Below, one piece after another: positions 30,613 to 49,499 of a DNA stretch of 64,000 nt (the stretch's first letter is position 1; each line of letters starts with the position of its first letter). Source of the DNA: an uncultured Bdellovibrionales bacterium (GTDB lineage Bacteria; Myxococcota; XYA12-FULL-58-9; JALHOP01); assembly GCA_964484195.1 (NCBI GenBank), contig CAZAER010000001.1, forward strand, positions 639,754 through 703,753. The letters are read 5' to 3'. Position numbers and translations under genes: made by a program. The notes under the pieces were generated by a model. That model did not search any database and was not told where the DNA came from. It saw only the letters and a program-made list of their open reading frames with translations.

Positions 30613-30700
30613 GCCGAACCTCCCAGCCCGGGCCTGCTGTGCTCCGTGCCGTGAGCTCACTTTGCGTTCTGGCGTGTGATGCATCAAACGCTATGATTTC

Positions 30701-31627: not shown

Positions 31628-31672
31628 CCTCGCTGCCTTGCATCCGGCGACCCACGAGGCGAAGTTGCGCGC

Positions 31673-32560
31673 ATGACGGGTGAGACGGAGAACGAGCGGT
31701 TGCCATTTGCAACCAAAGTGCGCCACGCGGTGAGGGAGCCCCGCGCGTTCCTGGTGTGGGCACGGGCAAAGACCGCGTCGAAAATGCAGGATTGGCTCGG
31801 CCTGCCGATGGCGTTCAATCGCCTCGACTTCAACGCCAGCTATCGCGAGCACGTCGCGCATCTCAAGCTGCGTTCGAAAGACGTCAGCACTGCGCTCAAG
31901 ATGGCAGTCGGGGGTCAGTTCGAAGCCTTTGGTCAGATGCAGCGCGACCTGCTCGTCTCGGTCGGTCTCACGCCGGAGAGCTACGTCATCGACGTCGGTT
32001 GCGGCTCGGGGCGGTTGGCGGCGCCGCTGTCGTCGTATCTCGAACGCGGCAGGTACTTCGGGATCGACGTCGTCCCCGAGCTCGTCGCCCACGCCGCGGC
32101 CGTCGCAGCGCGTCCCGAGTGGCGCTTCGAGACAGCGAACGGGCTTTCGATCAACGAGAAGGACGGCCAAGCCGACTTCGTTTGCTTCTTCTCGGTCCTC
32201 ACGCACCTCCTCCACGAAGAATCCTTCGTTTACCTACGCGAAGCGGCGCGCGTGCTGCGGCCGGGCGGCAAGATCGTCTTGTCGTTCTTGGATTTCGCCG
32301 TCCCCAACCACTGGCAGGTGTTCGAAAGGAACGTCGCGCACGTCGGCACGCGCATTCATCTCAATCAGTTCATCAGCAAGGACTGCCTCGGCGCTTGGGC
32401 AAGTCATCTGGGCCTATCGATCGACGCGACCTTCAACGGCGACACCCCGCACATTCCGCTCGCCGCGCCAGTCGTGCTCGACGACGGAACACGCGTCGAA
32501 AGCACCGGCTCTTTGGGCCAATCGGTGTGCGTGCTCGTGAAGCGAGCTGCGGGGCGCTGA
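31673..32560 (+). CDS. class I SAM-dependent methyltransferase
   Basis: Motif I VIDVGCGSGRL. Confidence 0.7.
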   Translation: MTGETENERLPFATKVRHAVREPRAFLVWARAKTASKMQDWLGLPMAFNRLDFNASYREHVAHLKLRSKDVSTALKMAVGGQFEAFGQMQRDLLVSVGLTPESYVIDVGCGSGRLAAPLSSYLERGRYFGIDVVPELVAHAAAVAARPEWRFETANGLSINEKDGQADFVCFFSVLTHLLHEESFVYLREAARVLRPGGKIVLSFLDFAVPNHWQVFERNVAHVGTRIHLNQFISKDCLGAWASHLGLSIDATFNGDTPHIPLAAPVVLDDGTRVESTGSLGQSVCVLVKRAAGR

Positions 32561-32621: not shown

Positions 32622-32700
32622 GCCCCCGTAGCTCAGATGGATAGAGCTGGGGTTTCCTAAACCCTGTAAGCCACAGGTTCGATTCCTGTCGGGGGCACCA
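32622..32700 (+). tRNA. tRNA-Arg (anticodon CCU)
   Basis: Acceptor stem GCCCCCG/CGGGGGC, T-arm ACAGG-TTCGATT-CCTGT, anticodon loop TTCCTAA, 3' ACCA. The 3' 23 nt are duplicated at 45111-45133. I could not resolve the variable-loop length cleanly by eye. Confidence 0.75.
32678..32700 (+). repeat. attL core, the 3' end of tRNA-Arg
   Basis: Identical 23-mer. Similarity to the partner site continues with mismatches for about 15 further bp. Confidence 0.8.
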
Positions 32701-32804
32701 TACAACAGTCCGGCGACGTCCGAGATAGTCCGCAAACCGCCGTAAGTACTGAAAATTGCGCGGCTTGATGGTTCGGTCAGGTCCGGCGGCGTACATTGAC
32801 ATCC

Positions 32805-32860
32805 GACGGTAACAGTCGGTAGCTCTGACGGTAACTCGACCCGGCGTGGGAGTTACCGTC
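32805..32860 (+). promoter_or_regulatory. GACGGTAAC repeats, two direct and one inverted, immediately upstream of the integrase start codon
   Basis: GACGGTAAC at 32805-32813 and 32827-32835. Inverted copy GTTACCGTC at 32852-32860. Two further copies (GACGGTAAC, GACGGTAGC) occur at 45047-45067 near attR. Confidence 0.4.
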
Positions 32861-34078
32861 ATGGCCCTGACTGAAACGAAGGTGCGCAACGCTAAGGCCG
32901 GCGCGAAGCCGTTCAAGGTCACGGACGGCGGTGGGCTCTACCTGTTGGTCACTCCCGCAGGCGGGCGTTGGTGGCGCTTCGACTACCGCTTTGCCGGCAA
33001 ACGCAAGACTCTCTCGATGGGCGTCTACCCTGACGTCTCGCTGAAACAAGCGCGTGAGCGTCGCGACGATGCGCGCCGCCGAGTCGCCGACGGTGTCGAT
33101 CCGGGCACCGCTCGGCAGCTCGAAAAATCCGGGCGCGCAGATCGCAGCGCCAACAGCTTCGAGGTTGTCGCGCGCGAGTGGCTCGCGAAATTTTCCCCGT
33201 CGTGGACCGCCGAATATGCGGAGCGCCTCGAGAGTCGCCTCGAGCGCGACGTATTCCCGTGGATCGGAGCGAGGCCCATAGGCGACGTGACCGCACCGGA
33301 GCTACTCACCGTGCTGCGCCGGATCGAAGCGCGCGGCGTGACCGAAACTGCTCACCGCGCCCTTCAAGATTGCGGGCGCGTCTTCTGCTACGCCGTCGCG
33401 ACCGGTCGCGCTGACCGCGATCCGTCGAGCGACCTGCGCGGAGCACTCGCGCCTGTTCGCCAAAAGCACTTCGCTTCGATCACCGATCCAGTGGCAGTCG
33501 GTGACCTGCTGCGCTCCATCGATGGCTACGAGGGCTCGGCCGTTACTCGATGCGCGATCCGCCTTGCACCCCTTGTCTTCGTCCGTCCCGGCGAGCTTCG
33601 ACACGCAGAGTGGAATGAATTCAACCTCGGCACGGCTGAGTGGCGCATCCCTGCCGCCAAGATGAAGATGCGCGACCCCCACATCGTTCCGCTATCGCGG
33701 CAGGCCGTCGACATCCTTCGCGCGCTGCACCCACTCACCGGCCACGGCCGCTACCTGTTCCCCGGCGTCCGCACAGCGCTCCGCCCGATGAGTGAGAACA
33801 CGGTGAACGCATCGTTGCGCCGCCTCGGCTTCACCAAAGACGAGATGACGGGCCACGGCTTCCGCAGCATGGCGTCGACGCTACTCAACGAGCAAGGCTG
33901 GAACCGCGACGCCATCGAGCGCCAACTCGCCCACGTTGAGCGCAACGCCGTGCGCGCCGCGTACAACTACGCTGAGCACCTGCCCGAGCGTCGCAAGATG
34001 ATGCAGGCGTGGGCGGATCACCTTGACGACCTTCGCGCCGGTGGCCGTCAAGTCGTGCGCATGATCCCCGCGGTGTAG
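32861..34078 (+). CDS. int: tyrosine recombinase/integrase, P4 type
   Basis: N-terminal DUF4102-like arm-binding region (LTETKVRNAKAG..GGGLYLLVTPAGGRWWRFDYRF) and a catalytic C-terminus with the R...HxxR...Y pattern (HGFRSMAST, RQLAHVE, Y). It is adjacent to a tRNA. Confidence 0.9.
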   Translation: MALTETKVRNAKAGAKPFKVTDGGGLYLLVTPAGGRWWRFDYRFAGKRKTLSMGVYPDVSLKQARERRDDARRRVADGVDPGTARQLEKSGRADRSANSFEVVAREWLAKFSPSWTAEYAERLESRLERDVFPWIGARPIGDVTAPELLTVLRRIEARGVTETAHRALQDCGRVFCYAVATGRADRDPSSDLRGALAPVRQKHFASITDPVAVGDLLRSIDGYEGSAVTRCAIRLAPLVFVRPGELRHAEWNEFNLGTAEWRIPAAKMKMRDPHIVPLSRQAVDILRALHPLTGHGRYLFPGVRTALRPMSENTVNASLRRLGFTKDEMTGHGFRSMASTLLNEQGWNRDAIERQLAHVERNAVRAAYNYAEHLPERRKMMQAWADHLDDLRAGGRQVVRMIPAV

Positions 34079-34090
34079 CCCAGGCCGCCG

Positions 34091-34288
34091 TCACCCATCA
34101 CAAGCGCAGCCGGTCGGTTGATGACACTCGAGCTGCCGATTGATGCAGGAATTGCCACAAGCCTTTCCCGTTGTGCAGATACGACAACACGCCATCGGGG
34201 TCGCGTCTTCGATCTCAATACATGCGTTCGCCGGCTGCATGCCCGCTGAACCGATGCCCATCAAGAAGCTTAGAACGAAACCAAGCAT
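34091..34288 (-). CDS. small Cys-rich protein with a hydrophobic N-terminus, hypothetical
   Basis: MLGFVLSFLMGIGSAG...ACCRICTTGKACGNSCINRQLECHQPTGCACDG. It occupies the otherwise empty gap after int. It may equally be the tail of an antisense artefact. Confidence 0.2.
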   Translation of the reverse strand: MLGFVLSFLMGIGSAGMQPANACIEIEDATPMACCRICTTGKACGNSCINRQLECHQPTGCACDG

Positions 34289-34394
34289 CGAGTGCTCCAC
34301 TCTCCCCGAGGAAAAGCATACTCGATGCGCTATCGCGGTGCGGCTGAAGCGCCGTTCACGATAGGCACCCCATGACGGCCTCGCCGGTTTCGCT

Positions 34395-35084
34395 TTGGTG
34401 GCGCAACATGCTACGTTTTGGCGGATGGCTGCTCGCCGGATTATCGGGGTGCTCGTAGGACTCTGTGTGTTCCTAATCGTGCCGCGCCTCTGTCGCGCAG
34501 CGAGAACGCACAAATGCTTTGTCTCGATCGCCGTACCGGACGGCGGCTTCACCCCTGAAGCGAAGGTTGACGTGCAGTTCTTCGTTGGAAGCGAGCTCAA
34601 CGCCTCGCTCGACGCACAGCGATTTCCCCCGGCGGCCGCCATCGCTGTCTTCGCTCTGCAAAAGGACATTGTTGTGGCCGTTCGCCTCTCATCGCCTGTT
34701 AGGGTTGAGGCTCCGTTGGTAGATAACGACATGGACGCGTTGTTTCGCGGAGTGCCCCACCTTCTCGGTGTTGATGGGGCGGCTAAGGGATGGCGATTGC
34801 GCTGCAAAGACCGAGGGCAATGGCTGGATGCGGCAGCGCGGCGACCGCTAGCGCCGGCCGCTCCCCGGCGTCGCGCAAGCGCCTGCGATAGCGGGCATTG
34901 GCTCGACAAGGTGTCGATGAATGGCGAGATCCTCGTGCTGGAAGATGGTTCGGTTTGGAGGGTGGATCCGGTCGACGCTGTCGACACCTCGCTATGGCTC
35001 CCTACGGAAGAAGTCGTCGCCTGCGACGACACCATCATCAACACCGACAATGGCGAGAAGGCTGATGCGATTCAGATCCGATAG
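34395..35084 (+). CDS. hypothetical membrane-anchored protein
   Basis: N-terminal transmembrane helix IIGVLVGLCVFLIV. C-terminal folded-looking domain (GEILVLEDGSVWRVDPVDAVDTSLW...IINTDNGEKADAIQI). Lower-GC DNA. Confidence 0.45.
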   Translation: MVAQHATFWRMAARRIIGVLVGLCVFLIVPRLCRAARTHKCFVSIAVPDGGFTPEAKVDVQFFVGSELNASLDAQRFPPAAAIAVFALQKDIVVAVRLSSPVRVEAPLVDNDMDALFRGVPHLLGVDGAAKGWRLRCKDRGQWLDAAARRPLAPAAPRRRASACDSGHWLDKVSMNGEILVLEDGSVWRVDPVDAVDTSLWLPTEEVVACDDTIINTDNGEKADAIQIR

Positions 35085-35086
35085 CG

Positions 35087-35287
35087 TTGAGCGGGAAGAT
35101 GGATCGAACTGAAGCAGCAAGACACGCCGGTGATTGCCTGGTGCGACTGAAGGCCGCGATGACCGCGCATGCTGCAGTGCCGTCGGGTGACGCCGAGAAG
35201 TTCGGGGAGACCTGGCTGGAACTCCACCGCGCCCACAGAGACTACTGCGAAGCGTTCGCCGTTTTTGAGGCTCTCTCCAAGCCCTAG
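35087..35287 (+). CDS. small helical hypothetical protein
   Basis: Starts 3 nt after the previous stop. Composition is plausible for a real protein. Confidence 0.35.
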   Translation: MSGKMDRTEAARHAGDCLVRLKAAMTAHAAVPSGDAEKFGETWLELHRAHRDYCEAFAVFEALSKP

Positions 35288-35588
35288 GGCCAGGAGTGAT
35301 GCGCGCAGGGCGCACGCGTCGAAATCCACGGCTAGCCCCTGCCGCAGAAGCCGCACAATCCGCAGAACTGCTTGGCCGTCCCTGAGAACAGGGTCTGAGC
35401 AGGGCCCGCCAAGCCGGCTCCTGGCCGATTCTGCGGTCGAAGCGGCACGTTCGCCCGATTCGTCGGACGGGCCGCGTATGTTCGGCGTGATCAGCGCGAC
35501 GATTTGATCACCGTCGCGCGCGGGTCTCGGTAGAGCGCGGTATGCGAAACTCCCGCGCTCCGCCGAGCCCGCAGCCGGAGTTTCGCAG

Positions 35589-37757
35589 ATGAATGATACA
35601 CCTCGCGGTGACGCGCAGAGCGTCGTCGATCGCCTTCAGTCCAGTCTTACCGAGATGCACGCGGCGCTCGCCAAGACCGTGGCCGCGCTCAACGCGCCGA
35701 TCACCATCGTCGAGCCCGATTCGAGCTTGCCGCCTGACGAGCGCTCAATGGCTCGTGCCGAGGCGCAAGCACAGGCGCGGCGCCAACAAGGCTCGCCCGA
35801 GTTGTGGAAGATGGCGGCGCTACGGACGCGCTTGGAAGCAGAGCACGGGGCGGCAGTTGACGAGCTTGCCGTCGTCGCAGCCCTCGCGGGTGTCACGGTC
35901 GACCGCGCGGCTTTGACTGCCCCGTTCGAGCATTTCTCGAACCTGTTGCGAAGCCGGGGTTCCGACAGCACCTACGCGAGGCGACTTCAGGCGATCCCTG
36001 CACGGGTCGATACGCTCGCCCGGGCGTCCGCGCACCTGATCGACGTCGCGCGGAAGCTAGGATGTCGCCTGATCGCCGATGAGCCACGGCCCCCTCGAGA
36101 GACCCAGCCGTTACTGCCGGCCGCTAAGGCAAAACCCTGGTGGGCGGCAGACGGGTTCAAGCTGGAAAGCGTTTACGCTCAGTTACGTCTCGAGGTCGAC
36201 GACGCCATCGCTGGGCTCGACGACGCAACCGATGATCATGCAGTCGCTGCGCTCTTGCCCGGCTTTGCGGCAGCCGACATTGCGCACTGCCGTGACGAGA
36301 AGGTGCACCCGCTCGACCATTGGGTGGCGTCCGAGATTGCCGATCTAGTCGACGCCGAGCTTAGCGAGATTCTCGCTCGTGAGCCGCAACGCAACCGCTT
36401 CCGCCTGAAGAATGGCGCCGAGGTTACGGACGATACGCTTCAGCGGACGGCAGTCAGCCGCTATCGCTCTGGCATCGCACAATCCGCCAAGCCGGCAGAC
36501 ACCCCGGCCAAGGCCATCGCCCAGCTTCATGCGGGCTGCGATGTACTGGCCACTGCTTTTGCACGTGCTCTCGCGGCGCACACCGCGAGGATTGGTGCGC
36601 TGAAAATCGATGACGCCATCGCCGACCCGGAGGAGGCGCGCGAAGCGGCAGAACTCGACGCCATGGAAGCGAGAGGCTACCCCGAGCTCTTCGATTCTGT
36701 CCTGTTGAGGGCGCGAGTCGAGGAAGAGCAGACTGCGGCGCTTAACCGGCTGATTGGCTTCGCAGCCCAATCCCGCGCCGGCGTCGCCGTCGACCGGGCC
36801 GTGTTGACCGCACCGCACGCCTCGTTCGGCCATCTGCTGCATCCCGGTCAGCGGCATGCGAGCCGCGCCAAATGGCTGCAAGAAATGCTTGAACGGACAA
36901 TACCGGCTGCGCGCGCCCACCTAACGCAGCTAGCCTCCCGTCTGGGCGTCGAGCTGCAACACGGTCGCGACTGGCTGGCCTGTCGAAAAGTGCCCTGGAG
37001 CGCGACCGCTGAAACGGACACGTGGCGGCAGGTAAAGTCCGACCTTCGGACCTTGGATCGGGACGCGGTTCGCGAAATCCTCGGCGTCGATGAAGCTGAC
37101 CTTCGAGGCCTTGAGCTTCAACGAGACGAGCTGCAACAGACGAGCGGTTGGCGCACTTGCCCTGGCGAGGCCCACGTCGCCGACGTCTGGGCAATTCGAG
37201 ACATCGAATGGACGCCGCGGACCCTCGACCAAGTTTTTCACGATGGCGACTATGGCTCCGGCGCCAATCCCGATCGGCAATACAGGGTCGCGGGGGCGAG
37301 TGACGTCATTGACCCACGAGAGATCCAAGCGCGAGCCGCCCGGCAGATCCGCGCGGCGCTCGAGACGCTAGGGCGAACCTCGGCAGGCGCTAAAACGGAC
37401 GTCCCGCTGGCGCCGACCAAGAGCGCGCCTCTTCATTCATCGGACTTCACTTCGGTGACGCACGGCGGGGAGTCGTATCGCTTTTCCAAACGGCAGGCCG
37501 CGGCCATAGCGCTGCTTTGGCGCGAGTGGGCGCGAGGCACGCCTACCATCGCGGAGGAGACGCTCGCCGAAGAGCTTGATCCCAATTCGGAACGCGACCC
37601 CAAGCGCTTTCGGTTGCGCGACATCTTCAAAGGCAAGACGAAGGGCAAGAACGGCAAGCATCGGGCGCAGATGCACCCCGCGTGGGGCACGATGATCATC
37701 GTCGCGGAGGGCATCGCTCGCCTGTCGTTCGCAGAAAAGGGAATTTCCCCCAGCTAG
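35589..37757 (+). CDS. large hypothetical island protein with an internal tandem-duplicated domain
   Basis: Two roughly 90-aa segments clearly align: ...PELWKMAALRTRLEAEHGAAVDELAVVAALAGVTVDRAALTAPFEHFSNLL... against ...PELFDSVLLRARVEEEQTAALNRLIGFAAQSRAGVAVDRAVLTAPHASFGHLL... I recognise no known domain. Confidence 0.6.
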   Translation: MNDTPRGDAQSVVDRLQSSLTEMHAALAKTVAALNAPITIVEPDSSLPPDERSMARAEAQAQARRQQGSPELWKMAALRTRLEAEHGAAVDELAVVAALAGVTVDRAALTAPFEHFSNLLRSRGSDSTYARRLQAIPARVDTLARASAHLIDVARKLGCRLIADEPRPPRETQPLLPAAKAKPWWAADGFKLESVYAQLRLEVDDAIAGLDDATDDHAVAALLPGFAAADIAHCRDEKVHPLDHWVASEIADLVDAELSEILAREPQRNRFRLKNGAEVTDDTLQRTAVSRYRSGIAQSAKPADTPAKAIAQLHAGCDVLATAFARALAAHTARIGALKIDDAIADPEEAREAAELDAMEARGYPELFDSVLLRARVEEEQTAALNRLIGFAAQSRAGVAVDRAVLTAPHASFGHLLHPGQRHASRAKWLQEMLERTIPAARAHLTQLASRLGVELQHGRDWLACRKVPWSATAETDTWRQVKSDLRTLDRDAVREILGVDEADLRGLELQRDELQQTSGWRTCPGEAHVADVWAIRDIEWTPRTLDQVFHDGDYGSGANPDRQYRVAGASDVIDPREIQARAARQIRAALETLGRTSAGAKTDVPLAPTKSAPLHSSDFTSVTHGGESYRFSKRQAAAIALLWREWARGTPTIAEETLAEELDPNSERDPKRFRLRDIFKGKTKGKNGKHRAQMHPAWGTMIIVAEGIARLSFAEKGISPS

Positions 37758-37796
37758 CCCCCCGCTGGGCCCCGCGCGTCGCGCGACAACGCGACC

Positions 37797-38012
37797 ATGC
37801 AACAGCTCGTAAGCCTTCGGGCACTAGTCAGACACCTGCGACGCAGGTTCGGCGATGCGGACGCCGCGCAGCTTCGTCGAGATGCGCAGGCGGGCATCAT
37901 TCCCAGCGTGAGGTTGGGCGCGGCCCTCGCCTTCGACATTGGCGCCGTGGAGGCGGCGCTACTCGCGCGCGCTCGTGATGCCGCGAAAGCGCACGATGGG
38001 GGTGCGACGTGA
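37797..38012 (+). CDS. excisionase-family HTH protein, putative
   Basis: ...AGIIPSVRLGAALAFDIGAVEAALL resembles the Xis-family motif GELPAVRIGRRLRFRREDLEAFL. Its stop overlaps the alpA start (GTGA). Confidence 0.4.
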   Translation: MQQLVSLRALVRHLRRRFGDADAAQLRRDAQAGIIPSVRLGAALAFDIGAVEAALLARARDAAKAHDGGAT

Positions 38013-38242
38013 GCCACCCCGCGCACACCTTGCCCGCTGCGGGATATCTTCGTCTGAAGCAGATCATCGGCGACCGAGAACACACGCCGATCATCCCCGT
38101 CAGCAAGTCGACGTGGTGGGACGGCATCAAGAAAGGCCGATTCCCCCAGCCCGTGAAGCTCGGCCCCCGCACCACCGCGTGGCGCGTCGAGGACATCCGC
38201 GCGCTCATCGAGCGCACCAACGCGGTGGAGCCGATTCGATGA
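38009..38242 (+). CDS. alpA: AlpA-family phage transcriptional regulator / excisionase
   Basis: YLRLKQIIGD...IPVSKSTWWDGIKKGRFPQPVKLGPRTTAWRVEDIRALIE is a classic Phage_AlpA motif. GTG start. Confidence 0.85.
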   Translation: MSHPAHTLPAAGYLRLKQIIGDREHTPIIPVSKSTWWDGIKKGRFPQPVKLGPRTTAWRVEDIRALIERTNAVEPIR

Positions 38243-39291
38243 AAGCCTTCGACGAGTTGCGGGCGCTCGGCATCGCGAGCACCGCGCAAGCCATTGGCCT
38301 CAGCAAGGTTGGACGTCGGGGTTATGGCCCGTGTCCGCAATGCGGCGCAGTCACGAGGCACCGCAAGCGCAAGGACAAGCGCGGCGCCATCGGGGTGACG
38401 TTGGACGGTCACGGATGGGCGTGCTTCCAGTGCGACGCTCGTGGCGACGCCGCGCGCCTCGTAAGTCACGCGATTGGCTTGCACGGTCGCACCTCGGGTG
38501 CGGATGCGAGGCGCGTGCTCGAGGCGGCTCGGAACTGGGGCTTGATCGGTGAACACCCTCGTCAGGTCCTCGCGGTGCGGCGGGAAGCGACGGAGACGAG
38601 CGGCACCTATCCCCCCGCCGACGAAATCGCGTCGCTGCTGCGCGCATGCCATGCCCTCGGCACCCCTGGCACCGAAGCTGCCGAAGCGTGGGCCAGGTCG
38701 CGCGGCCTCGAGCCGGACGCGGTGGCCGAGCTGTGCGCCGTAACGGTTCTCTCGACGGATGCGAAGCTGCCCACGTGGGCGCGTACCGGCATGCGGTCCT
38801 GGCGCGACAGCGGTCATCGTTTGGTGGTCCCGCTCTATGACGCGCACGGAGTCGTTCGCAGCGTTCGGGCTCGGGACATCACCTCCCACGCTCGAATCAA
38901 AGAGCTGACGCCAAGCGGCCACACCGTGACAGCGCTCGTCATGGCGGACCGCAAGGCCTATCGCCTCTTGAAGGACGACACCTACGACGTGGACGAAACC
39001 ATGGCTGTGCACGTGCGCCGTGTCGGAGTCGTTGTCGCCGAAGGCACGCCGGACTGGCTTACCGCTCAGCTTGCGGGCGTTACGCAGCGCGGCGCCGATG
39101 CGCCCGCAGTCTTCGGCATCTTCAGCGGCGCCTGGACTCCCGAGCACGCAGCGAAGGTTCCGAGAGGAACGCCAATCCTGATCGCCACGGACCGAGACAA
39201 CCAAGGCGAAGCCTACGCGGCCAATATCGCCAGCACCTTCAGCGGACGATGCCCCTGTCGCCGTTGGCAACCGAAGTCGAGAAACGCATGA
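38239..39291 (+). CDS. DNA primase (CHC2 zinc finger plus Toprim), phage/P4 type
   Basis: Zinc finger CPQCGAVTRH...HGWACFQCDARGD. Toprim acidic motifs (VVVAEGTPDW...ILIATDRDNQGE). ATGA overlap with alpA. Confidence 0.8.
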   Translation: MKAFDELRALGIASTAQAIGLSKVGRRGYGPCPQCGAVTRHRKRKDKRGAIGVTLDGHGWACFQCDARGDAARLVSHAIGLHGRTSGADARRVLEAARNWGLIGEHPRQVLAVRREATETSGTYPPADEIASLLRACHALGTPGTEAAEAWARSRGLEPDAVAELCAVTVLSTDAKLPTWARTGMRSWRDSGHRLVVPLYDAHGVVRSVRARDITSHARIKELTPSGHTVTALVMADRKAYRLLKDDTYDVDETMAVHVRRVGVVVAEGTPDWLTAQLAGVTQRGADAPAVFGIFSGAWTPEHAAKVPRGTPILIATDRDNQGEAYAANIASTFSGRCPCRRWQPKSRNA

Positions 39292-40895
39292 GCGCAGTAG
39301 CGGACTTGAATAGTGTCGGCGTCAACGGCTTTCGCCTCGACGAATCCGAGCCGATCGACGACTCCACAGAATGGGAAATGCCGACCCCGTTTGGTGAGTA
39401 CGACGTGCCGGCGTTTCCCGACATCGAGGCGCCGACGCTCATGGCATTCGCGCGCGCGGTAGCAACGGCGACGCAGACGCCGGTCGATGCGGCGGCCCTG
39501 TTTGGACTGTCCGCAGTTGCCGCAGCGGTTGGCACGAAGGCGCGCATCGAGGCGCGCACGGGCTGGAGCGAACCGTTCTGCGTATTCGTCGCGGTCGCGC
39601 TCCCGCCAGGTAACCGCAAGAGCGCCGTGTTCAGCGAGGTGATCGCACCTCTGGGAGCCTGGGAGCGTCGCGAGGCTGAACGGTTGGCTCCGGCAATCGC
39701 GGCGCAGAAGTCGAAGCGCGCGGTGCTCGAGGCGCGTCACGAGAAGCTGGTGAAGGATGCCGCCAAGGCCGATGACATGGCCCAGCGCGGTGAGCTTCAG
39801 AGTCAGGCCGAACAGGTCGCCGCAGAGCTGGCGCTGACGCCGCTCATTGGAGCACCACAGATCACCGCCGACGACGCGACGCCCGAGGCGCTCGCGGCGC
39901 TTATGGCGATGAATCAAGGCAGCGTTGCCGTCATGTCCGCCGAGGGCGCGGGGCCGTTCGCCCTCATGGCGGGTCGCTACGACAAGAACGGCGCGCCAAA
40001 CTTCGAGCTGTATCTGAAGGGACACGCTGGCGATGCCGTGAAAGTTAACCGGCGCAACGCCGAGCCGATCAACCTGCCGCGACCCGCGCTCACGATGGCG
40101 ATCGCCGTTCAGCCGGATGTGTTGCGCGCGATGGCGGACATCCCTGGCGCCCGTGCCCGCGGCCTTGCGGCTCGCTTTCTCTACTCGCTTCCCGCGAGCA
40201 CCGTCGGTTACCGCGACTGCAACCCTCCCCCGGTGTCCGACAGCGTCCGGCGCTCGTGGAATACCGCGCTCGAAGCGCTGCTCAACCTCGAACACCGCCA
40301 AGACGGAGAGCCGCATGTCGTGCGTCTGTCGGCGGCAGCGGATGCTATCCTGCTCGCCTACCAACAGGAGCTTGAGCCGACGATGCGAAGCACCGGCGCC
40401 CTGTGCGCCATCGCCGACTGGGCGGGGAAAGCGGCGGGTCTCGCGGTCCGCCTGGCTGGGCTGATCCATGCGGTGAAGTATGCCGACAAGATGGCTGCTA
40501 CGTTGGTCGATGCCGGGACAATGAAAGCCGGCGTCGACGTCGCTCGCTACGCTACGGCGCACGCCATCGCGGCGTATGGCGAGATGGGACAGGACCCCGC
40601 CAATGCAGATGCGCGTTGGCTGCTCGAGTACCTCTCGCGCTGGGGGCGCTCGTCCTTCTCGGCTCGAGACCTGTTTTCGAGCTTGCCGCGAGGAAGGTTC
40701 AAGAAGGCAGACGACCTGCGCGGCGCACTCGCCGTTCTCGAGGACCGGGGCTTCGTGCGTGCGCGCGTATCGATGGAACGACTTGGGCCCGGACGTCCCC
40801 GCAGCCCTGTCTATGACGTTCACCCAAGCCTCCTTTCTGCGGCTTCTGCGGATTCTGCGCGTGGAGATCAGCACAGACGGGAAGCGTTTACGTGA
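39288..40895 (+). CDS. DUF3987-like protein, the usual partner of P4-type primases (replication-associated)
   Basis: Its size and position immediately downstream of the primase, with ATGA coupling, are typical of alpA-primase-DUF3987 modules in integrative elements. Confidence 0.55.
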   Translation: MSAVADLNSVGVNGFRLDESEPIDDSTEWEMPTPFGEYDVPAFPDIEAPTLMAFARAVATATQTPVDAAALFGLSAVAAAVGTKARIEARTGWSEPFCVFVAVALPPGNRKSAVFSEVIAPLGAWERREAERLAPAIAAQKSKRAVLEARHEKLVKDAAKADDMAQRGELQSQAEQVAAELALTPLIGAPQITADDATPEALAALMAMNQGSVAVMSAEGAGPFALMAGRYDKNGAPNFELYLKGHAGDAVKVNRRNAEPINLPRPALTMAIAVQPDVLRAMADIPGARARGLAARFLYSLPASTVGYRDCNPPPVSDSVRRSWNTALEALLNLEHRQDGEPHVVRLSAAADAILLAYQQELEPTMRSTGALCAIADWAGKAAGLAVRLAGLIHAVKYADKMAATLVDAGTMKAGVDVARYATAHAIAAYGEMGQDPANADARWLLEYLSRWGRSSFSARDLFSSLPRGRFKKADDLRGALAVLEDRGFVRARVSMERLGPGRPRSPVYDVHPSLLSAASADSARGDQHRREAFT

Positions 40896-41572
40896 GCGGC
40901 TCATCGAAGCGCAGCAGGAAGCGGAACGCACCAGGTGAGAGCGGCGCTCCTCCGAAGTCTCGGACCCTGACGGTACCCGGCCATGGTGACGTCTCTCGCG
41001 ACCGGGCTATCGCGCTGATCGCGACGTCGCCCTCAACCACCGCCGCAACACTCAGCGTCGACTATTCACGCGCCACCTTCGGCGAGTTGTCACTCACCGA
41101 TACCATGGCCGTGCTCTCGGAGACGCTCAAGGCTGTGCGGCAAGGCAGCCTCGCGGAAGTCGAAAACATCCTCATGGCGCAGGCCGTCGCGCTGAACTCG
41201 ATCTTCACCGACCTGAGCGTGCGTGCGGCTCGCGCCGAGTACGTCGACGGCATGGAGCGCTACCTGCGGCTGGGCCTCAAAGCGCAAGGTCAATGCCGGG
41301 CCACGCTCGAGACGCTGGCGGCAATCAAAAATCCCCCACTCGTCGTCACCCGCCAGGCAAACATCTCGAATGGCCCGCAGCAGGTTAACAATGGCGTGAC
41401 AGCCCAGGTGGCGCCGTCGCGCGCGGAGGGATCGGAAACTGCGCCAAACGAACTATTGGGAGAACGCTATGGCGAATGGCTGGACAGCGGAACGGAAAGC
41501 GCGACAGCGCGAAGCGATTCGTCAATGGCGCCCTTGGGAGAAGTCGACGGGGCCACGAAGCGACCCAGGTAA
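40892..41572 (+). CDS. hypothetical protein
   Basis: ATGA-coupled to the upstream gene. Composition is moderately protein-like. The 3' end is uncertain because an alternative frame (41469..41693) encodes a basic Arg/Lys-rich peptide. Confidence 0.35.
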   Translation: MSGSSKRSRKRNAPGESGAPPKSRTLTVPGHGDVSRDRAIALIATSPSTTAATLSVDYSRATFGELSLTDTMAVLSETLKAVRQGSLAEVENILMAQAVALNSIFTDLSVRAARAEYVDGMERYLRLGLKAQGQCRATLETLAAIKNPPLVVTRQANISNGPQQVNNGVTAQVAPSRAEGSETAPNELLGERYGEWLDSGTESATARSDSSMAPLGEVDGATKRPR

Positions 41573-41742
41573 GGCCACCGCTTCTCGCAATGCTGATCGC
41601 GGAGGACAGCGTAAGCTGGCGCGCGAGCAACTCCGGGCCCTCCGCGAATTGCTGCGTGAATGGGAGCGCACAGGCTCGCTCCAGCGAAGATGACGCCACC
41701 CTGGACTTTTCGCTAAAACGGATGCTCGAAGGAGGTGGCTCT

Positions 41743-41964
41743 ATGAACATCGACGAGAGCAGAACCCTGGTCGTGGGCGACGTGATCGTGATCGAGGATT
41801 CACGGCGTCATGAAGCACCTGCGGGGATGCAAGAGCTTATTTGGCTGGAGCCAAGCACCGAAGCCGCGGTCCAGAAGGTGAAAAGCCTCGACGGCAGCCT
41901 GACGACGATCACCGACATTCAACTTCTCGCGTACCGTAAGACCGGGAAACGTAAACAGATCTAG
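41743..41964 (+). CDS. small hypothetical protein of 73 aa, in low-GC DNA
   Basis: Strong Shine-Dalgarno GAAGGAGGTG 7 nt upstream of ATG 41743. MNIDESRTLVVGDVIVIEDSRRHEAPAGMQELIWLEPSTE... It is the first gene of the low-GC cassette. Confidence 0.45.
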   Translation: MNIDESRTLVVGDVIVIEDSRRHEAPAGMQELIWLEPSTEAAVQKVKSLDGSLTTITDIQLLAYRKTGKRKQI

Positions 41965-42132
41965 GTGAGGTCGCGTCACCGTGACGCAATTTATCAACCC
42001 GCCAGTTCGCGGTCGTGGTACGAAAACTCATCCGTGCTGTCGCACGGTGCGTCTCCTCCTCGAGGGTCGGCGCGTCACGATGAGCGTGCTCAGACGAGCA
42101 CACGGACCTGTTGGTCCAAAAAGGAATTTCTT

Positions 42133-43308
42133 ATGCGTATCCAGAAGTACGATTTTGCCTGCCTTAAGTCCTGCCGTTCCTTTCGCCTCGGAAACAAAGA
42201 ACTTTGGACCCTGACGGTTCGGTTGAAAGACCTGCCGAGGACGTTCACCTACGGTCCGAACGCGCGATTCGCCAGCCTGGACAAGAAGCCCGCGAAAGAG
42301 ATGCTCGCAACCCTGGCGAGTGATCCTGAAGCGTTCGTGTTGAACAACAACGGGATCATGCTCGTGGCAGAGAGCCTTCGCGCCGAGAGTGACTCGGTCG
42401 AACTCGTGTGCCACGAGGCCGAGACCGACGAAGAGATGCCCGGCCACGGCATCCTCAATGGCGGACACACGTACAAGGCGCTACAGGAAGCGCTCGCCAA
42501 CCCCAGCGAATACCCGCGCGCGGCCGACGAAGCCGTCGTCGTCGTCACAGTCGGCCTTGGCATCGGCAAGGATGACCGGGAGGAGATCTCTCGCATCTCC
42601 AAAGCGCGAAACACCTCAGAGAAAGTGCCGTTGCACGCACTGCGGGAACTCAACGGCGATTGGTCCGATCTGAAGCGGTACCTTCCCGAGGAGGCGAGGC
42701 CGCTCGTCGCGTTCAAGCCGGGCGAGAATCCCGAGGCCGAATTCGACGTTACCGATGTCGTGCGTCGCCTTGCGCTCTTCAATAACAGACTGTTCCCGGC
42801 GCAAGAGAGTGCGCATCCCGTTGCCGCGTACACGTCGATCGGGTCACTGGTGAAGAAGTACGACCAGAAGCATTTCTTCGACGTGGCGCCGCTGTTGCCG
42901 GATATCCTGCGGCTCGAGGAGCTTGTCGTTCAGTATTACGAATCGAGCAGCGGGCAGAAGGCGCGCGACCAAGCCAAGCTCGGCGTGATCACCAAATTGT
43001 CGGGCAATAGCCCCCAGCCGATGACATTGCTCAGCGGCTATCGCAGCTCGATGACGCTCGCCGACCCCTATGTTCTGCCGGTGGTCGCTGCCTTCCGCGT
43101 GTTCGTCCTCGACGGTGCTTGGAAGGCGGACATGGCGACTCTCTGGGACAAGTACGGTGCTCGTGTCGTCGGCGCCTTGCTGGATGCCTACAAGGAGCAA
43201 GGCAAGTCGAGCGCGGCTGTGTTCGGTCGCTCGAAGGGCTCGTGGGCTGCGGCCTGCGAACTGACCAAGGCCGTTGCCATCCAAGAAGGGTTCATTCGCA
43301 TCGGCTGA
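42133..43308 (+). CDS. Abi-like protein, a candidate AIPR-type abortive-infection protein
   Basis: MRIQKYDF... with a GILNGGHT motif reminiscent of the (I/V)xNGxQT motif I associate with AIPR-family phage-resistance proteins, recalled from memory and unverified. GC is markedly low, around 45-55% in sampled lines. Sits in the island's accessory end next to a HEPN-motif gene. Confidence 0.55.
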   Translation: MRIQKYDFACLKSCRSFRLGNKELWTLTVRLKDLPRTFTYGPNARFASLDKKPAKEMLATLASDPEAFVLNNNGIMLVAESLRAESDSVELVCHEAETDEEMPGHGILNGGHTYKALQEALANPSEYPRAADEAVVVVTVGLGIGKDDREEISRISKARNTSEKVPLHALRELNGDWSDLKRYLPEEARPLVAFKPGENPEAEFDVTDVVRRLALFNNRLFPAQESAHPVAAYTSIGSLVKKYDQKHFFDVAPLLPDILRLEELVVQYYESSSGQKARDQAKLGVITKLSGNSPQPMTLLSGYRSSMTLADPYVLPVVAAFRVFVLDGAWKADMATLWDKYGARVVGALLDAYKEQGKSSAAVFGRSKGSWAAACELTKAVAIQEGFIRIG

Positions 43309-43377
43309 AAGGACGAACGTGCCTGCCTGCGTCCGCAACGGCTCAGGCATGCCGTGTGTCTGCTATAGCGACAAGGC

Positions 43378-44034
43378 TTGGGAGCAATGGACCAGGAAAA
43401 GGCCAGCACCGGGGACACAGTAGCGCGTGGCACGCAGGCGGGAGCCTTTAAGGCGTTCGCGGCCAACATCAAGCGGGCCCGCGCATTCATCAGAATCTTT
43501 CACGGTGCAGAAGGACGAGAACGCGGGCAGCCGACGAAGGACGAGAAGGAACTTCTGCGCGGAGCGATCGTCTTCGCGGTGGGCGCACTGGACGCTTACT
43601 TGCACGACGTCGTGCTAGAGATCGTGCCTCGCTTCGGTCCCGAGGGAAAGTCGTTGCAGGAGGGCCTCAAGCAGATCGCCAAGGAAGACCCTGGGCTCGC
43701 TCTCCGGGTCGCTCTCGCGGCAACAAGCGAGGACGCGAAGGACGTTTTTCGCGGTGCGCTCAGCGCCTGGCTCGATGAGAAGTCGTTCCAAGGCCCGGAA
43801 GCTGTCGTTCGTGTCCTAGGCTACCTGGGACTCGAAACGAAGGGGGGCGTCGACGCCCTGGTCGAGGAGGGTGCGTCGGCGCGGCTGCAATCGTTGACGG
43901 AGCAGCGCCACAACGTGGTCCATAGAGCTACGAGCGATCGGATCACCAGGGACGACGCAACCAACGCCGTAGACCTTGTCGAGTCCGTCGCGTCGGCAGT
44001 GAACGCATTGGTCAAGTCGAAGTATGACACCTAA
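43378..44034 (+). CDS. HEPN-domain protein (putative RNase effector or partner)
   Basis: C-terminal Rx4H motif (EQRHNVVHRATSDR) in an all-helical protein of about 215 aa. Confidence 0.5.
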   Translation: MGAMDQEKASTGDTVARGTQAGAFKAFAANIKRARAFIRIFHGAEGRERGQPTKDEKELLRGAIVFAVGALDAYLHDVVLEIVPRFGPEGKSLQEGLKQIAKEDPGLALRVALAATSEDAKDVFRGALSAWLDEKSFQGPEAVVRVLGYLGLETKGGVDALVEEGASARLQSLTEQRHNVVHRATSDRITRDDATNAVDLVESVASAVNALVKSKYDT

Positions 44035-44179
44035 CCCCCTCGCCGAGGGACTCGTCGATGGCTCCGCGGCTTGCCTCGTGACGCGTGCTGTGTTTTAGCG
44101 GACGCCCTAGGCTGTGGCGTATCGGTTCGCACGATTGTGAATCACTTGGTGCCGCGGACTTGCAGTTGGCTCGAACCCG

Positions 44180-44983
44180 TTGGAGGAGCCCGTGGCGGAC
44201 ACCGAAGCACGAACGGCCGCAAAGCTCGATCTTGGGCGAACGGCCATCGTCGCGCTGAGCGCGGACTACGAAGACCGCATTGACGACTTACGAGCGGCCG
44301 AGGGCAAGGGCCAAAACATTCTCGCATTGTGCGGCGCCCTCGTTGCGGTGTGCTTCGCCATGCTGAGCGCGGACGCCGATCTGCCAATCTTCGATGCGAC
44401 AGGCTTGACGCTCGTCTTTGCAATCGTGGTTGCGCTGGTCGGTGCTGGTGGTCTGGCTACATCTACGTTCCAACCTCGAGCGTTTCCGAGCCGGCCCAAT
44501 GCGGGTGAATTGCTTCGGCTTGCCAGGGAGCTTCAGTCGTCCGGCGAGCCGGAGGAGCTTTCGAACCTTCTCTTTGACTACGCGATCCAATGGCCGAAAC
44601 AGCTCGAGGCCTTGCAGGAGGTTGTCAGGGCCAAGTCGACCGCTCTCGTCAGGGCACAGCGATGCCTATTGTTCGCAGTATTGTTGGGGGTCGGTCTTTT
44701 CGTCCGGACGGCGATAACAATCGCGATGGGGAAGGTGCATGGCGAAATGCATGAAACGGCAATGTACGGAGCCACGGATGAGCGGCAGCCTTCATTGTGC
44801 GCTTCATCAGGATTGGGAAATGGGCGGGCCGCGCTACCGAACAGACGCGAGTGCGAAGGACCCGTGGGGGCCGCTCCTGAACGAAACGTGGGTGGGAACC
44901 GGCAAGAAGAAGGCGAAGAAAAGCAGCCGCCGCAGCAAGCAGGTCAAGCTCGCAACGAAGAGCGCCAAGCATGCGGCTGGTGA
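44180..44983 (+). CDS. hypothetical membrane protein with three predicted transmembrane helices
   Basis: Hydrophobic helices ILALCGALVAVCFAML, LTLVFAIVVALVGAGGLA, LLFAVLLGVGLFV. The C-terminal 80 aa of the ORF look non-coding, so the true end may be near 44750. Confidence 0.4.
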   Translation: MEEPVADTEARTAAKLDLGRTAIVALSADYEDRIDDLRAAEGKGQNILALCGALVAVCFAMLSADADLPIFDATGLTLVFAIVVALVGAGGLATSTFQPRAFPSRPNAGELLRLARELQSSGEPEELSNLLFDYAIQWPKQLEALQEVVRAKSTALVRAQRCLLFAVLLGVGLFVRTAITIAMGKVHGEMHETAMYGATDERQPSLCASSGLGNGRAALPNRRECEGPVGAAPERNVGGNRQEEGEEKQPPQQAGQARNEERQACGW

Positions 44984-45035
44984 CAAGGTGAAGTCGGAAC
45001 GGTCGATTCCCAAGCCACCTCGCCGCAAGCGATAG
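44739..45035 (+). CDS. small Cys/His-containing basic protein, hypothetical
   Basis: MAKCMKRQCTEP...SLHCALHQDW followed by a Lys/Arg-rich tail. Alternative frame overlapping the end of the preceding ORF. Ends 75 bp before attR. Confidence 0.25.
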   Translation: MAKCMKRQCTEPRMSGSLHCALHQDWEMGGPRYRTDASAKDPWGPLLNETWVGTGKKKAKKSSRRSKQVKLATKSAKHAAGDKVKSERSIPKPPRRKR

Positions 45036-45110
45036 ATCTGTCCCGTGACGGTAACTATGACGGTAGCCGCATCGACGCGGCGCCAAGAATCGCCCTGAGA
45101 ACAGGTCGTT

Positions 45111-45133
45111 AACAGGGCCTTTCGATTCCTGTC
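45111..45133 (+). repeat. attR core, a duplicated 3' fragment of the tRNA
   Basis: Identical 23-mer with no upstream tRNA body. Confidence 0.8.
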
Positions 45134-45250
45134 GGGGGCACCACAAACCAGTCCGAGGAAGTCGAACACAGCCCGAAGTCGCACGGAAACGCAGGATACT
45201 GGGCGACTTGAGCGTGCGACGACGCACAATCCGCAAAACGGAGTGGGCGT

Positions 45251-46351
45251 CTACTCCAAGAGGTCCATGACAAGCCGAGTTAGCGCAGCCGTCTTCGCTG
45301 CAATGCGCGGGTCGGCGTACCAATGGTCGAGGCCGACATCGACGATGACGCGGCTGCCCGGCAATAGCTCGTCGGTGAGCAACGTCACACCGTCGTTGGG
45401 GCCGTAGGCTTGCATGGCAGCGTATGAGCCCTGGACCGGACGCGTAACCGTTCCCGACAGCGGCACGGCAACGTAGTGTAGCACCGTAACGTGCGCAGGC
45501 AGCGAGGCCTCGGCAAAACGCGTCGCGCTTGTCGACGTCGAGAGGCTCGCTACCATGTCGCAGGAAAAATCTCCCCACCACCCTGCGACGCCAGTGAGCC
45601 ACGAGCGCGGCGGCGTAAGATGTAGGTCGGCGAGACGCGATCCCCGCAGGACACCGCCGATGCTCACCCAAGCGCGCACCCGTTGTGCCGCAAGCGGATT
45701 GATGAGTTTTCCGAGGGCATAGTGAACCTCAGGCCCTCCCTTGCTCGCGCTCACGAAGATCAGACGCCTGCGGTCATCGCGCCACCCGATGACGAAGTCT
45801 GCAATTCGCCGAGCATTGGCTTCCACGGTGTCCGCTTCCGCGGTCGCGACGCGCGCCGTCGCAATCCCGAGCGAGCGCACGAGCTGTTCGGCATCGCGCA
45901 GGTCTCCTTTCGTCTCGGGTTTGCTTTCGTAGAACAAGCCCGGAACGAAGACGATGACATACGACGCCGCGGTTGCTGCCGCTGGCGGCGGGTCGCTCGA
46001 GTAGTCGAGGAAGCGCTGCTTGATCTCCCGATGCTCCCGCGTCAGGCGTTCTGCGAAATAGAGCGCCGCGAAGTCGTTCGAGCTGCTGCGGGCAAGCTCG
46101 ACCAGCGCATCGGTCGACAAGGGGCGTTCTTCGAGCGGCGTAAGCAGTGCGTCGATGGCAGTGTCGAGCGCTGCGCCGGAGGTGCGACCGGTGAGATACG
46201 AGCTGAGGTAGTGGGCAGCGAGCTGGGAATCGACAGACGCCGTTACCTCCTCGAGCCCGACGACCCCACGGGCAAGGAACTGCGGCTGGCTCGAGGCACA
46301 AGCGAGCAGGCCCGAGATGATGAGTAAGAGAACGACCGAGCGAGAATGCAT
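45251..46351 (-). CDS. lipoprotein, probably alpha/beta-hydrolase-like
   Basis: Lipobox LLACAS after MHSRSVVLLLIISG. Confidence 0.5.
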   Translation of the reverse strand: MHSRSVVLLLIISGLLACASSQPQFLARGVVGLEEVTASVDSQLAAHYLSSYLTGRTSGAALDTAIDALLTPLEERPLSTDALVELARSSSNDFAALYFAERLTREHREIKQRFLDYSSDPPPAAATAASYVIVFVPGLFYESKPETKGDLRDAEQLVRSLGIATARVATAEADTVEANARRIADFVIGWRDDRRRLIFVSASKGGPEVHYALGKLINPLAAQRVRAWVSIGGVLRGSRLADLHLTPPRSWLTGVAGWWGDFSCDMVASLSTSTSATRFAEASLPAHVTVLHYVAVPLSGTVTRPVQGSYAAMQAYGPNDGVTLLTDELLPGSRVIVDVGLDHWYADPRIAAKTAALTRLVMDLLE

Positions 46352-46428
46352 GCTGGCTCCGATAGAGAACCGAGCTTGCACCGCCTCCGTCATCGCTCGC
46401 TCCGCGAAGCCGAAAAAACGCTCCTCAA

Positions 46429-47478: not shown

Positions 47479-47542
47479 GACGTGGCGTGTATGACCGGGC
47501 ACATTTTCGAGCAAGCTTCTAGAGTCCTTAGCTCGGGAGCCA

Positions 47543-48602: not shown

Positions 48603-48665
48603 GGCGATGGTCGATCTCCACGAAGAGCCGGCACCGATGAAGGCGCCGGCCCGTCCGCGTGCAGG

Positions 48666-48794: not shown

Positions 48795-48905
48795 GCGACG
48801 ATTCCTTTCTTACCCGCGCGGTGCACGGGAGTGAGTGTCTGCTGGTATGGCGCGGGCCGGGCGGATCGTGACAGGCCAAGGCGCCTTTTTTCGCGTCGCC
48901 AGCCG

Positions 48906-49497: not shown

Positions 49498-49499
49498 CG

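Follow-up and report, generated by a model that had tools for sequence, protein, structure and literature searches.

What kind of mobile element lies between the two copies of a tRNA-Arg 3′ end in the genome of an uncultured Bdellovibrionales bacterium, and by what means might it spread? The locus falls within a 64-kb stretch of contig CAZAER010000001.1 (hereafter the window, meaning the whole stretch analyzed), in which an earlier note, made from the sequence alone, had recognized a P4-like integrative element. Our analysis confirms that the element is an integrative genomic island, inserted in the T-loop-to-CCA segment of tRNA-Arg(CCU). The explanation that we favor, with good confidence, is an island that combines P4-type integration with an operon encoding AlpA, a primase, and a helicase, and with a defense-type cargo resembling the AbiU system.

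The tRNA-Arg (anticodon CCT in the DNA, i.e., CCU) is the only tRNA that ARAGORN detects in the window and the sole Rfam match above threshold there (cutoff 29 bits; Table 1), and it is complete, as the earlier note had claimed. Its last 23 nt, TTCGATTCCTGTCGGGGGCACCA, span the first T-loop base through the CCA end of the gene. Allowing up to three mismatches, this core occurs exactly twice in the 64 kb, and no third copy with at least 16/23 identity exists in the window. Searches with 100 shuffled versions gave no matches, and the chance expectation is 0. The earlier note had seen that the repeat recurs and that degenerate similarity continues past it, which is the case beyond both copies. 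The position it gave for the second copy, 45111-45133, must be raised by 10 nt; the element therefore ends at 45143 and measures 12,443 bp from core to core. The 3′ end of the now-intact tRNA gene is supplied by the island.

The base preceding the core differs between the two copies (G versus T), and the DNA 5′ of the attR core is unrelated to the tRNA body. Together with the lack of a second tRNA call at the attR core, this excludes a tRNA duplication, including the duplicated tRNA pair that the earlier note had named as a counter-explanation. More broadly, the idea that the repeat arose by chance or when a tRNA gene was duplicated, with ordinary chromosomal genes in between, has nothing to recommend it beyond the bare existence of the repeat. 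There is one tRNA only, identity ends at the T-loop, no chance matches were obtained, the gene content is that of an island, codon composition is shifted, and relatives show the same boundary. We therefore regard the probability of such an origin as negligible.

The shift in codon composition is significant: G+C content at third codon positions (GC3) is 0.75 ± 0.05 for island genes and 0.83 ± 0.03 for host genes (P = 7e-5). Because the high G+C content of the genome (~65%) fills it with spurious open reading frames (ORFs), frames were selected by G+C content at each codon position, and the chosen frames were compared with independent gene calls on identical Logan contigs. Every well-supported island gene lies on the plus strand.

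Comparison with two related contigs, both reached through relatives of the island protein p226 (see below), locates the insertion boundary independently. These are the NCBI contig JANPYG010006622.1, from a metagenome-assembled genome (MAG) (here L038), and an ENA contig (L039). The upstream flank of L038 is syntenic with the window at 76% nucleotide identity (L038 192-3732 corresponding to window 26484-29961). It leads to a tRNA-Arg(CCT) gene followed by an integrase 90% identical to that of the window (BLASTP; 88.6% by global alignment). L039 carries the same island as L038 (99.5% identity over 6.7 kb), but beside a tRNA-Arg(CCG) gene and behind an unrelated upstream flank. To the right of the core start, L038 and L039 show 0 mismatches in 400 nt. 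To its left, only CAGG of the shared T-stem matches, after which identity drops to chance level (25/80). This integrase lineage appears to have placed one island in two tRNA-Arg genes that share their 3′ end, with a boundary at the point where the repeat in the window starts. The L038/L039 sister island thus seems, from its sequence, to have moved recently, and the pair is the best available substitute for an empty-site test. An integrative element with attL and attR in the tRNA-Arg 3′ end, as first proposed, is upheld both by the exact repeat and by this junction at the core. The integrase gene beside an intact tRNA gene and the repeated 3′ fragment of that gene at the far end also agree with the Islander-type definition of tRNA-targeting tyrosine-integrase islands.

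The integrase that adjoins the intact tRNA gene is of the P4 type, as the earlier note had said. It has the three Pfam domains given in Table 1, is 42% identical to P4 Int over 407 amino acids (aa) (E = 3e-91), and retains the catalytic R...HxxR...H...Y motifs. The sequence GACGGTAAC has five exact copies in the 64 kb, and four of them are found at the island ends: three at 32805-32860 and one at 45047, the latter next to a one-mismatch copy at 45059. Distances from these repeats to the core are 105-160 nt on the integrase side and 54-74 nt on the other. In the annotated P4 genome, the arm repeats of attP are 113-163 nt from the core on the integrase side, and two adjacent repeats are 54-77 nt from it on the other side. 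The int-proximal block ACATTGACATCCGACGGTAACAGTCGGTAGCTCTG.CGGTAACTCG...GGAGTTACCGTCATGG, which includes a TTGACA hexamer, has hardly changed between the window and L038/L039, in contrast to the diverged DNA around it. A scan for sigma-70 promoters returned no sites. We infer that the GACGGTAAC repeats and the TTGACA block are probably arm-type integrase sites and the int promoter.

Further short repeats surround the cores. The (A/C)GTCCG repeats begin 7 nt past the attL core, and degenerate versions (AGTCCG, AGTCGA, and AGCCCG) follow the attR core at 45150-45175; they are possibly binding sites for accessory proteins. The 51 nt after the attR core (45144-45194) are ~80% similar to L038 4886-4936, which is the island side following attL, core included, and the same holds for L039. 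Either attP arose from such a tRNA flank, or this flank may represent the left end of a lost island. A hairpin-like motif, CCCTGAGAACAGG...CAGGGCC, is shared with 81% identity by 35380-35406 and 45093-45119, the latter directly before the attR core. We considered an internal att remnant near 35380-35406 and rejected it, as no core-like sequence follows that copy of the motif.

Replication functions are encoded in a compact block. Four consecutive start/stop overlaps of 4 nt each join a 71-aa ORF to alpA (GTGA), alpA to the primase gene (ATGA), the primase gene to the DUF3987 helicase gene (ATGA, formed by the primase stop and the alternative helicase start at 39288), and the helicase gene to the p226 gene (GTGA). 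The five genes thus form one translationally coupled operon, and the ATGA/GTGA-coupled junctions of the earlier note are all accounted for. Its calls of AlpA and of a DUF3987-like protein also held. AlpA is similar to P4 Vis/ORF88 (E = 1e-5 by tblastn and 2e-7 by phmmer). The “CHC2/Toprim primase” is supported as a primase by phrog_47 and by 30% identity over 194 aa to the N-terminal primase of P4 alpha (residues 22-177; E = 5e-5), although its zinc motif is of the primase-helicase type, not CHC2. Phage relatives of the DUF3987 protein are annotated as helicases. It has no detectable similarity to P4 alpha, and a DUF3987 search of viral contigs found nothing. The first ORF of the operon, previously called excisionase-like, does belong to the coupled operon; its resemblance to an excisionase is by eye only, and no significant family match was obtained for it. 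The C-terminus of its product is kept in another related island, L035.

Downstream of the replication genes lies p226, a protein with 5724 relatives, none usefully named. In L035, L037, L038, L039, and L040, its gene stands directly 3′ of the replicase genes, and cargo then follows. The replicase itself varies: L037 has PrimPol and DUF927, L038 and L039 have PrimPol-AAA_25, and L040 has Toprim and DUF3987. L035 shares with the window the series alpA-primase-DUF3987-p226 at 64-80% aa and 72% nucleotide identity, its DUF3987 protein being 80% identical to that of the window. After p226, L035 carries an OEP/RND metal-efflux operon in place of the AIPR and HEPN genes described below. An AlphaFold 2 (AF2) model of p226 predicts a helical bundle with a disordered tail bearing QANI.GPQQVNN. 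We found no significant fold, PDB, or PHROG match for p226, and an alignment search of metagenome contigs with it yielded nothing.

The p226 family is not confined to integrated islands, since homologs are present on plasmids: two small Polaromonas plasmids and one Ralstonia megaplasmid. The Polaromonas plasmids, pW9NP1 (7.2 kb) and pH8NP1 (11.2 kb), encode RepA and ParA, and their p226 homologs have 40-44% identity. One small plasmid with a p226 relative is typed as mobilizable (MOBV). These plasmid contexts are inconsistent and give no functional clue. They do bear on the idea that the island is an integrative mobilizable element, moved via an oriT by a conjugative helper rather than by a phage. 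This would fit an island that lacks transfer genes but whose modules for integration and replication are intact. However, no relaxase, coupling-protein, or other conjugation family was matched in Pfam or NCBIfam, no oriT was identified, and AlpA with a primase-helicase is a typical satellite or P4 module. We consider conjugative mobilization improbable.

The replication operon is flanked by two arrays, each made up of three 9-bp CCGCAGAA-type repeats. The array within the 3′ end of the helicase gene is oriented oppositely to that at 35342-35367, which is accompanied by an inverted copy (35429-35436). No other 8-mer pairs up in this way at two places within the island. In L035, an equivalent array stands between helicase and p226, whereas L038, with its different replicase, has GTTTCC/GGAAAC repeats at this position instead.

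Between the integrase and the operon lies a gene for a 722-aa protein that, in a word-seeded search, matches only itself among 5.8 billion proteins. Residues 3-213 align with residues 303-503 (score 185, versus 43 ± 7 for shuffled sequences), revealing an internal duplication. The C-terminus has the OmpR/PhoB-type winged-helix effector fold. Pfam, including Trans_reg_C, gave no match for this protein and 10 relatives, and an N-terminal receiver domain is absent, the N-terminus being the orphan duplicated region. The same C-terminal domain also ends a 300-aa protein in the equivalent slot of L038 and L039, and in other contigs proteins with this domain precede an HTH_17/AlpA-type gene and a Toprim gene. 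By analogy with Stl, one might speculate that the 722-aa protein senses a helper.

The right-hand part of the island carries its cargo, which begins with an AIPR protein and a HEPN protein. The HEPN protein has RHNVVH at residue 174, which fits the Rx4-6H motif. AIPR is a member of the AbiU1/AIPR family (PMC3506569), in the AbiU locus of lactococci AbiUi is accompanied by AbiUii, a HEPN protein (PMC13064643), and AIPR is listed among the cargo of P4 hotspots (PMC9122126). On these precedents, the AIPR and HEPN pair is AbiU-like. Differences are that the island HEPN protein is of the RiboL-PSP rather than the AbiU2 family, that a third, membrane-protein gene follows, and that the near-identical AIPR of L038 has other downstream neighbors. 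The three-gene cargo can thus be described as resembling AbiU and likely anti-phage. Neither this cargo nor the 722-aa protein and p226 had figured in the earlier note.

The third cargo gene encodes a 263-aa ORF with a weak PADLOC match to “2TM effector” (2e-3). A precomputed PycTM label for it was not reproduced (hmmscan, E <= 1), and we rejected that identity. At 0.65, the GC3 of this ORF is lower than anywhere else in the island, and its final 80 codons are overlapped by another ORF (44739-45035; 98 aa; GC3 0.72), which is Cys/His-rich at its start and basic in its tail. Gene callers are split between the two, so the C-terminus of the 263-aa protein is uncertain. Naming the cargo and core genes with PADLOC and NCBIfam matched the integrase only.

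Minor ORFs follow the integrase gene. Convergent with it is a 65-aa ORF with a signal peptide-like N-terminus, the pattern CC..C..GKACG.SC...C....GCAC, and a weak Fer4_20 match. The 229-aa and 66-aa ORFs beyond it have no Pfam, PHROG, or PADLOC match.

Table 1. Features of the tRNA-Arg(CCU) island and its attachment sites, in window coordinates
Feature	Position	Strand	Basis
tRNA-Arg(CCU), complete	32622..32700	+	ARAGORN; Rfam, 58 bits
attL core, T-loop to CCA	32678..32700	+	Exact 23-nt repeat; L038/L039 identity begins at the same point
(A/C)GTCCG repeat, three copies at an exact 10-bp period, immediately inside attL	32707..32732	+	Sequence; also in L038/L039
Three GACGGTAAC arm-type repeat candidates (32805+, 32827+, 32852-)	32805..32860		Exact-copy count; conserved non-coding block
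P4-family tyrosine integrase, 405 aa, with N-terminal arm-binding domain	32861..34078	+	PF13356 (Arm-DNA-bind_3), PF22022 (Phage_int_M), PF00589 (Phage_integrase); phrog_1
Small Cys-rich protein, 65 aa, candidate for secretion; uncertain accessory gene	34091..34288	-	ORF translation
Uncertain ORFs of 229 aa and 66 aa; weak-coding region of ~1.5 kb	34395..35287	+	G+C content by codon position
Three 9-bp CCGCAGAA-type repeats (35342-35367) and inverted copy (35429-35436), 5′ of the 722-aa gene; candidate iteron/operator	35342..35436		Tandem Repeats Finder (TRF); motif search
722-aa orphan: two internal repeats of ~210 aa, then OmpR/PhoB-like winged-helix domain (~residues 600-715)	35589..37757	+	Internal alignment; fold
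71-aa ORF, first operon gene	37797..38012	+	GTGA overlap with alpA; excisionase/helix-turn-helix (HTH)-like by eye only
AlpA-family regulator/excisionase, 77 aa	38009..38242	+	PF05930, 28.6 bits (cutoff 21)
Zn-ribbon/Toprim primase, 350 aa	38239..39291	+	phrog_47, 1e-9; P4 alpha N-terminus
DUF3987 helicase, 548 aa (alternative start 39288)	39249..40895	+	PF13148, E = 3e-91; phrog_2373 DNA helicase, 1e-59
Second array of three 9-bp CCGCAGAA-type repeats, 3′ end of helicase gene; candidate origin iterons	40835..40860	-	TRF
p226, conserved core protein, 226 aa	40892..41572	+	Relatives, synteny, AF2 model
AIPR (AbiU1/AIPR family), 391 aa; defense-type cargo	42133..43308	+	PF10592, 99.2 bits (cutoff 25)
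HEPN (RiboL-PSP family), 215 aa; predicted RNase partner of AIPR	43387..44034	+	PF18735, 38.2 bits (cutoff 28.4)
Predicted membrane protein, 263 aa, ~3 hydrophobic helices; possible effector	44192..44983	+	Translation
GACGGTA(A/G)C, two adjacent copies 54-74 nt ahead of attR core; candidate arm-type repeats	45047..45067	+	Motif count; P4-like spacing
attR core, displaced copy of tRNA 3′ end	45121..45143	+	Exact 23-nt repeat; no tRNA called

How far, then, does the comparison with P4 reach? The island resembles P4 in integrase family, in its insertion from T-loop to CCA with regeneration of the tRNA end, in arm-repeat spacing, in its AlpA/Vis-type regulator, and in homology to the primase domain of alpha. 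The two repeat arrays that flank the replication operon are reminiscent of ori and crr, and defense cargo near an att end is likewise a P4 trait (PMC9122126). It differs in that primase and helicase are separate genes, with a DUF3987 helicase; in that all genes lie on one strand with int first; in its high-G+C host, which is not an enterobacterium; and in the additional presence of the 722-aa OmpR-like-domain protein and p226. SatelliteFinder lists Int, Psu, Delta, Sid, AlpA, epsilon, and alpha as the components of P4-like satellites (PMC10085698). Sid, Delta, and Psu gave E > 0.1 each when the P4 proteins were compared with the island by tblastn, with no PHROG match; epsilon reached E = 0.37, which is not significant; and P4 cI, gop, beta, and cII gave nothing significant. 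With matches to only three of the seven components (Int, AlpA, and alpha in its primase part), the island does not qualify as a P4-like satellite under this definition. The label “P4-like” thus applies to the integrase, att architecture, AlpA/Vis, and primase domain, and fails as a family assignment.

Other named systems come closer in some respects. The island fits the loose “int + AlpA + primase” class, i.e., type C of the phage-inducible chromosomal islands (PICIs) in SatelliteFinder, with int, AlpA, a primase/replicase, and a length of 12.4 kb within the range of 10-15 kb. Type C PICIs are treated as possibly other mobile elements (PMC10085698). It differs from types A and B in that the island proteins scanned include no capsid-morphogenesis or packaging-redirection match. 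The PICMIs (phage-inducible chromosomal minimalist islands) of Vibrionaceae also combine int, AlpA, and a DUF3987-type primase (PMC10803314), and they share with our island the absence of capsid-remodeling genes and the presence of ATGA-coupled genes. However, PICMIs are about half the size, target fis, and carry a Fis gene, whereas this island sits in a tRNA-Arg gene, shows no Fis-type match among the proteins scanned, and has a separate Toprim primase, p226, the 722-aa protein, and a three-gene cargo. The Pseudomonas element phiAH14b (KU708005) is an experimentally packaged satellite (PMC4936722). Its integrase is 43% identical to ours, it starts with a tRNA 3′ end, it has short repeats of its own near both ends, and its genes run on one strand as int, a ~300-aa hypothetical gene, AlpA, a Toprim primase, a helicase, and cargo. 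Protein similarity is nevertheless limited to int and, weakly, AlpA; phiAH14b is 16.8 kb long and has a tail-assembly-like gene, and both p226 and the OmpR-like-domain protein are absent from it.

These likenesses bear on whether the island is a strict phage satellite with a PICI- or P4-like lifestyle, in which a helper phage would induce AlpA-driven excision and replication, helper virions would package the island, and cargo and uncharacterized genes would interfere with the helper. We hold this to be a real possibility that falls short of even chances. It would explain the type C PICI combination of int, AlpA, and primase/helicase on one strand of a 12.4-kb element free of virion genes, the parallels to PICMIs and to packaged phiAH14b, and the position of defense cargo beside att, as in P4 hotspots. 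Relatives of p226 also occur in 29 IMG/VR contigs, some of which are clearly islands of the same kind; one of them has the order tmRNA-int-DUF3987-p226, with no attR repeat within 16 kb. However, an IMG/VR contig that we examined has no virion genes among those tested, and its “viral” label may merely reflect the island itself. Moreover, p226 is absent from 50,697 phage records, yet present on small plasmids. The island has no counterpart of Sid, Psu, Delta, or epsilon or of a PHROG capsid or terminase, in agreement with the earlier note, which had found no capsid or terminase genes; uncharacterized ORFs could hide one. Neither a helper nor a pac/cos site is known.

For the broader explanation, that of an integrative island with P4-type integration, an AlpA-primase-helicase operon, and AbiU-like cargo, we propose the following sequence of events. 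Int, aided by AlpA and possibly by the 71-aa protein, would excise the island in circular form. Replication of this circle, perhaps starting from the 9-bp arrays at 40835-40860 and 35342-35436, would fall to the primase and helicase, two genes that jointly correspond in function to the single P4 alpha. The 722-aa protein would control the operon through its OmpR-like DNA-binding end, and the cargo would protect the host by an AbiU-like abortive-infection mechanism. Since the island encodes no virion, packaging, or conjugation genes, with no match to virion, terminase, Sid/Psu/Delta, or conjugation families among its proteins in Pfam, PHROGs, and NCBIfam, cell-to-cell spread must rely on a helper, most likely a phage.

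Several results weigh against this explanation or parts of it. The Pfam matches of the primase, Zn_Ribbon_Prim and Toprim_2, are both below threshold. The cargo matched no system model in PADLOC. No helper, packaging signal, or oriT was identified. Any 8-mer forming two such arrays arises in 3% of Markov simulations, a modest statistic, and it is only by inference that the CCGCAGAA-type arrays might be replication origin sites paralleling P4 ori and crr, or that the 722-aa protein probably regulates the AlpA-replication operon by binding DNA, its N-terminus being specific to the lineage. A search for an empty site in genome contigs, made via the upstream methyltransferase gene, reached best relatives of 57% identity in unrelated MAGs and no close genome. 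Exact-protein lookups with flank and island genes returned only contigs 100% identical to the window, all with an occupied site. For the excised island, the predicted junctions are ...GTAAGCCACAGGTTCGATTCCTGTCGGGGGCACCACAAACCAGTCCGAGGAAG... (attB) and ...GTTAACAGGGCCTTTCGATTCCTGTCGGGGGCACCATACAACAGTCCGGCGAC... (attP); neither the exact attB pattern in metagenome contigs nor the attP pattern in viral contigs was found.

Divergence from L038 adds a further point of this kind. Codons with only synonymous differences number 156/405 for int and 137/391 for AIPR, compared with 125/409 and 85/310 for two host flank genes. Because synonymous divergence of int and AIPR is about that of the host flank, the locus has perhaps long been occupied, and this copy is perhaps rarely mobile. 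Gene order after int in L038 is the 300-aa protein, AlpA, the PrimPol-AAA_25 replicase, p226, other cargo, and AIPR. Between the two islands, AlpA is 59-62% and p226 51-55% identical, and the replicases are non-homologous. In contrast, AIPR is 97% identical in amino acids and 86% in nucleotides, and its 137 synonymous versus 12 amino-acid differences indicate strong purifying selection. The AIPR similarity (L038 18546-19865, window 41989-43308) includes 144 nt upstream and ends exactly at the stop codon, and the genes downstream differ.

The ends of the island may thus have occupied this tRNA since before the split of the two hosts, and recombination may have exchanged the middle. This pattern fits a long-resident island that is inherited mainly vertically, with old ends (int and AIPR), a swapped middle, and perhaps inefficient excision; the occupied site in all contigs on record fits as well. 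Against it stand the identical cores, the intact integrase, AlpA, and operon genes with their coupled starts, and the apparently recent movement of the L038/L039 sister island. We think a predominantly resident history unlikely, though it deserves some weight, and we retain the integrative island with P4-type integration as the favored explanation.

The surroundings of the island show further traces of gene exchange. A 1.6-kb Logan contig from SRR12808459 corresponds to window 45124-46727 and ends 3 nt inside the attR core. This end might be an assembly-graph branch from mixed occupied and empty sites, or just low coverage. After attR, seven minus-strand genes (45251-50359) have an island-like GC3 of 0.70-0.76, and host-like values (0.86) return from 50552. 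They encode a 380-aa protein, an AraC protein, a 184-aa ORF, a sigma-70-like protein, an LMWPc/ArsC-like protein, a glyoxalase, and an ArsR-type HTH protein. This region, for which no further att copy exists, may be the integrase-less remnant of an older island, placed in tandem at the same tRNA. Upstream, a LysR regulator gene and an S-adenosylmethionine (SAM) methyltransferase gene lie at 29995-32560, between the L038-syntenic flank and the tRNA, and L038 lacks both. The best relatives of the methyltransferase, in Acidobacteriota MAGs, share only 57% identity with it, and this suggests that DNA upstream of the tRNA was acquired horizontally in a separate event.

More speculatively, the island could belong to an undescribed, widespread family of helper-dependent islands in high-G+C Proteobacteria-like hosts. 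Such a family would be defined by p226 (>5,700 relatives), following interchangeable replicase modules with their own iterons, and by a class of regulators (>1,000 relatives) with a conserved OmpR-like DNA-binding end and a hypervariable N-terminus. The N-terminus would sense a specific helper or invader, and the DNA-binding end would keep the AlpA-replication operon off, making the protein an analogue of Stl from the Staphylococcus aureus pathogenicity islands (SaPIs), within a bipartite ori/crr-like layout. We regard this proposal as doubtful in its entirety.

Taken by itself, the island is of an ordinary kind, and its description is mainly of use for annotation. Yet islands with int, AlpA, and a primase-helicase are a major and poorly classified vehicle for anti-phage genes, and most of them are put aside as “type C” by current satellite finders because they have no known hijacking genes. 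Together with its relatives, this island dissects one such lineage: P4-type machinery for integration, a replicase slot whose occupant changes together with its repeats, and a cargo slot that holds defense genes in one relative and metal efflux in another. The two conserved uncharacterized genes could be used as markers in searches for the family. If the OmpR-like protein with its variable N-terminus is a sensor-repressor, it would offer a route to how these islands recognize their helpers.

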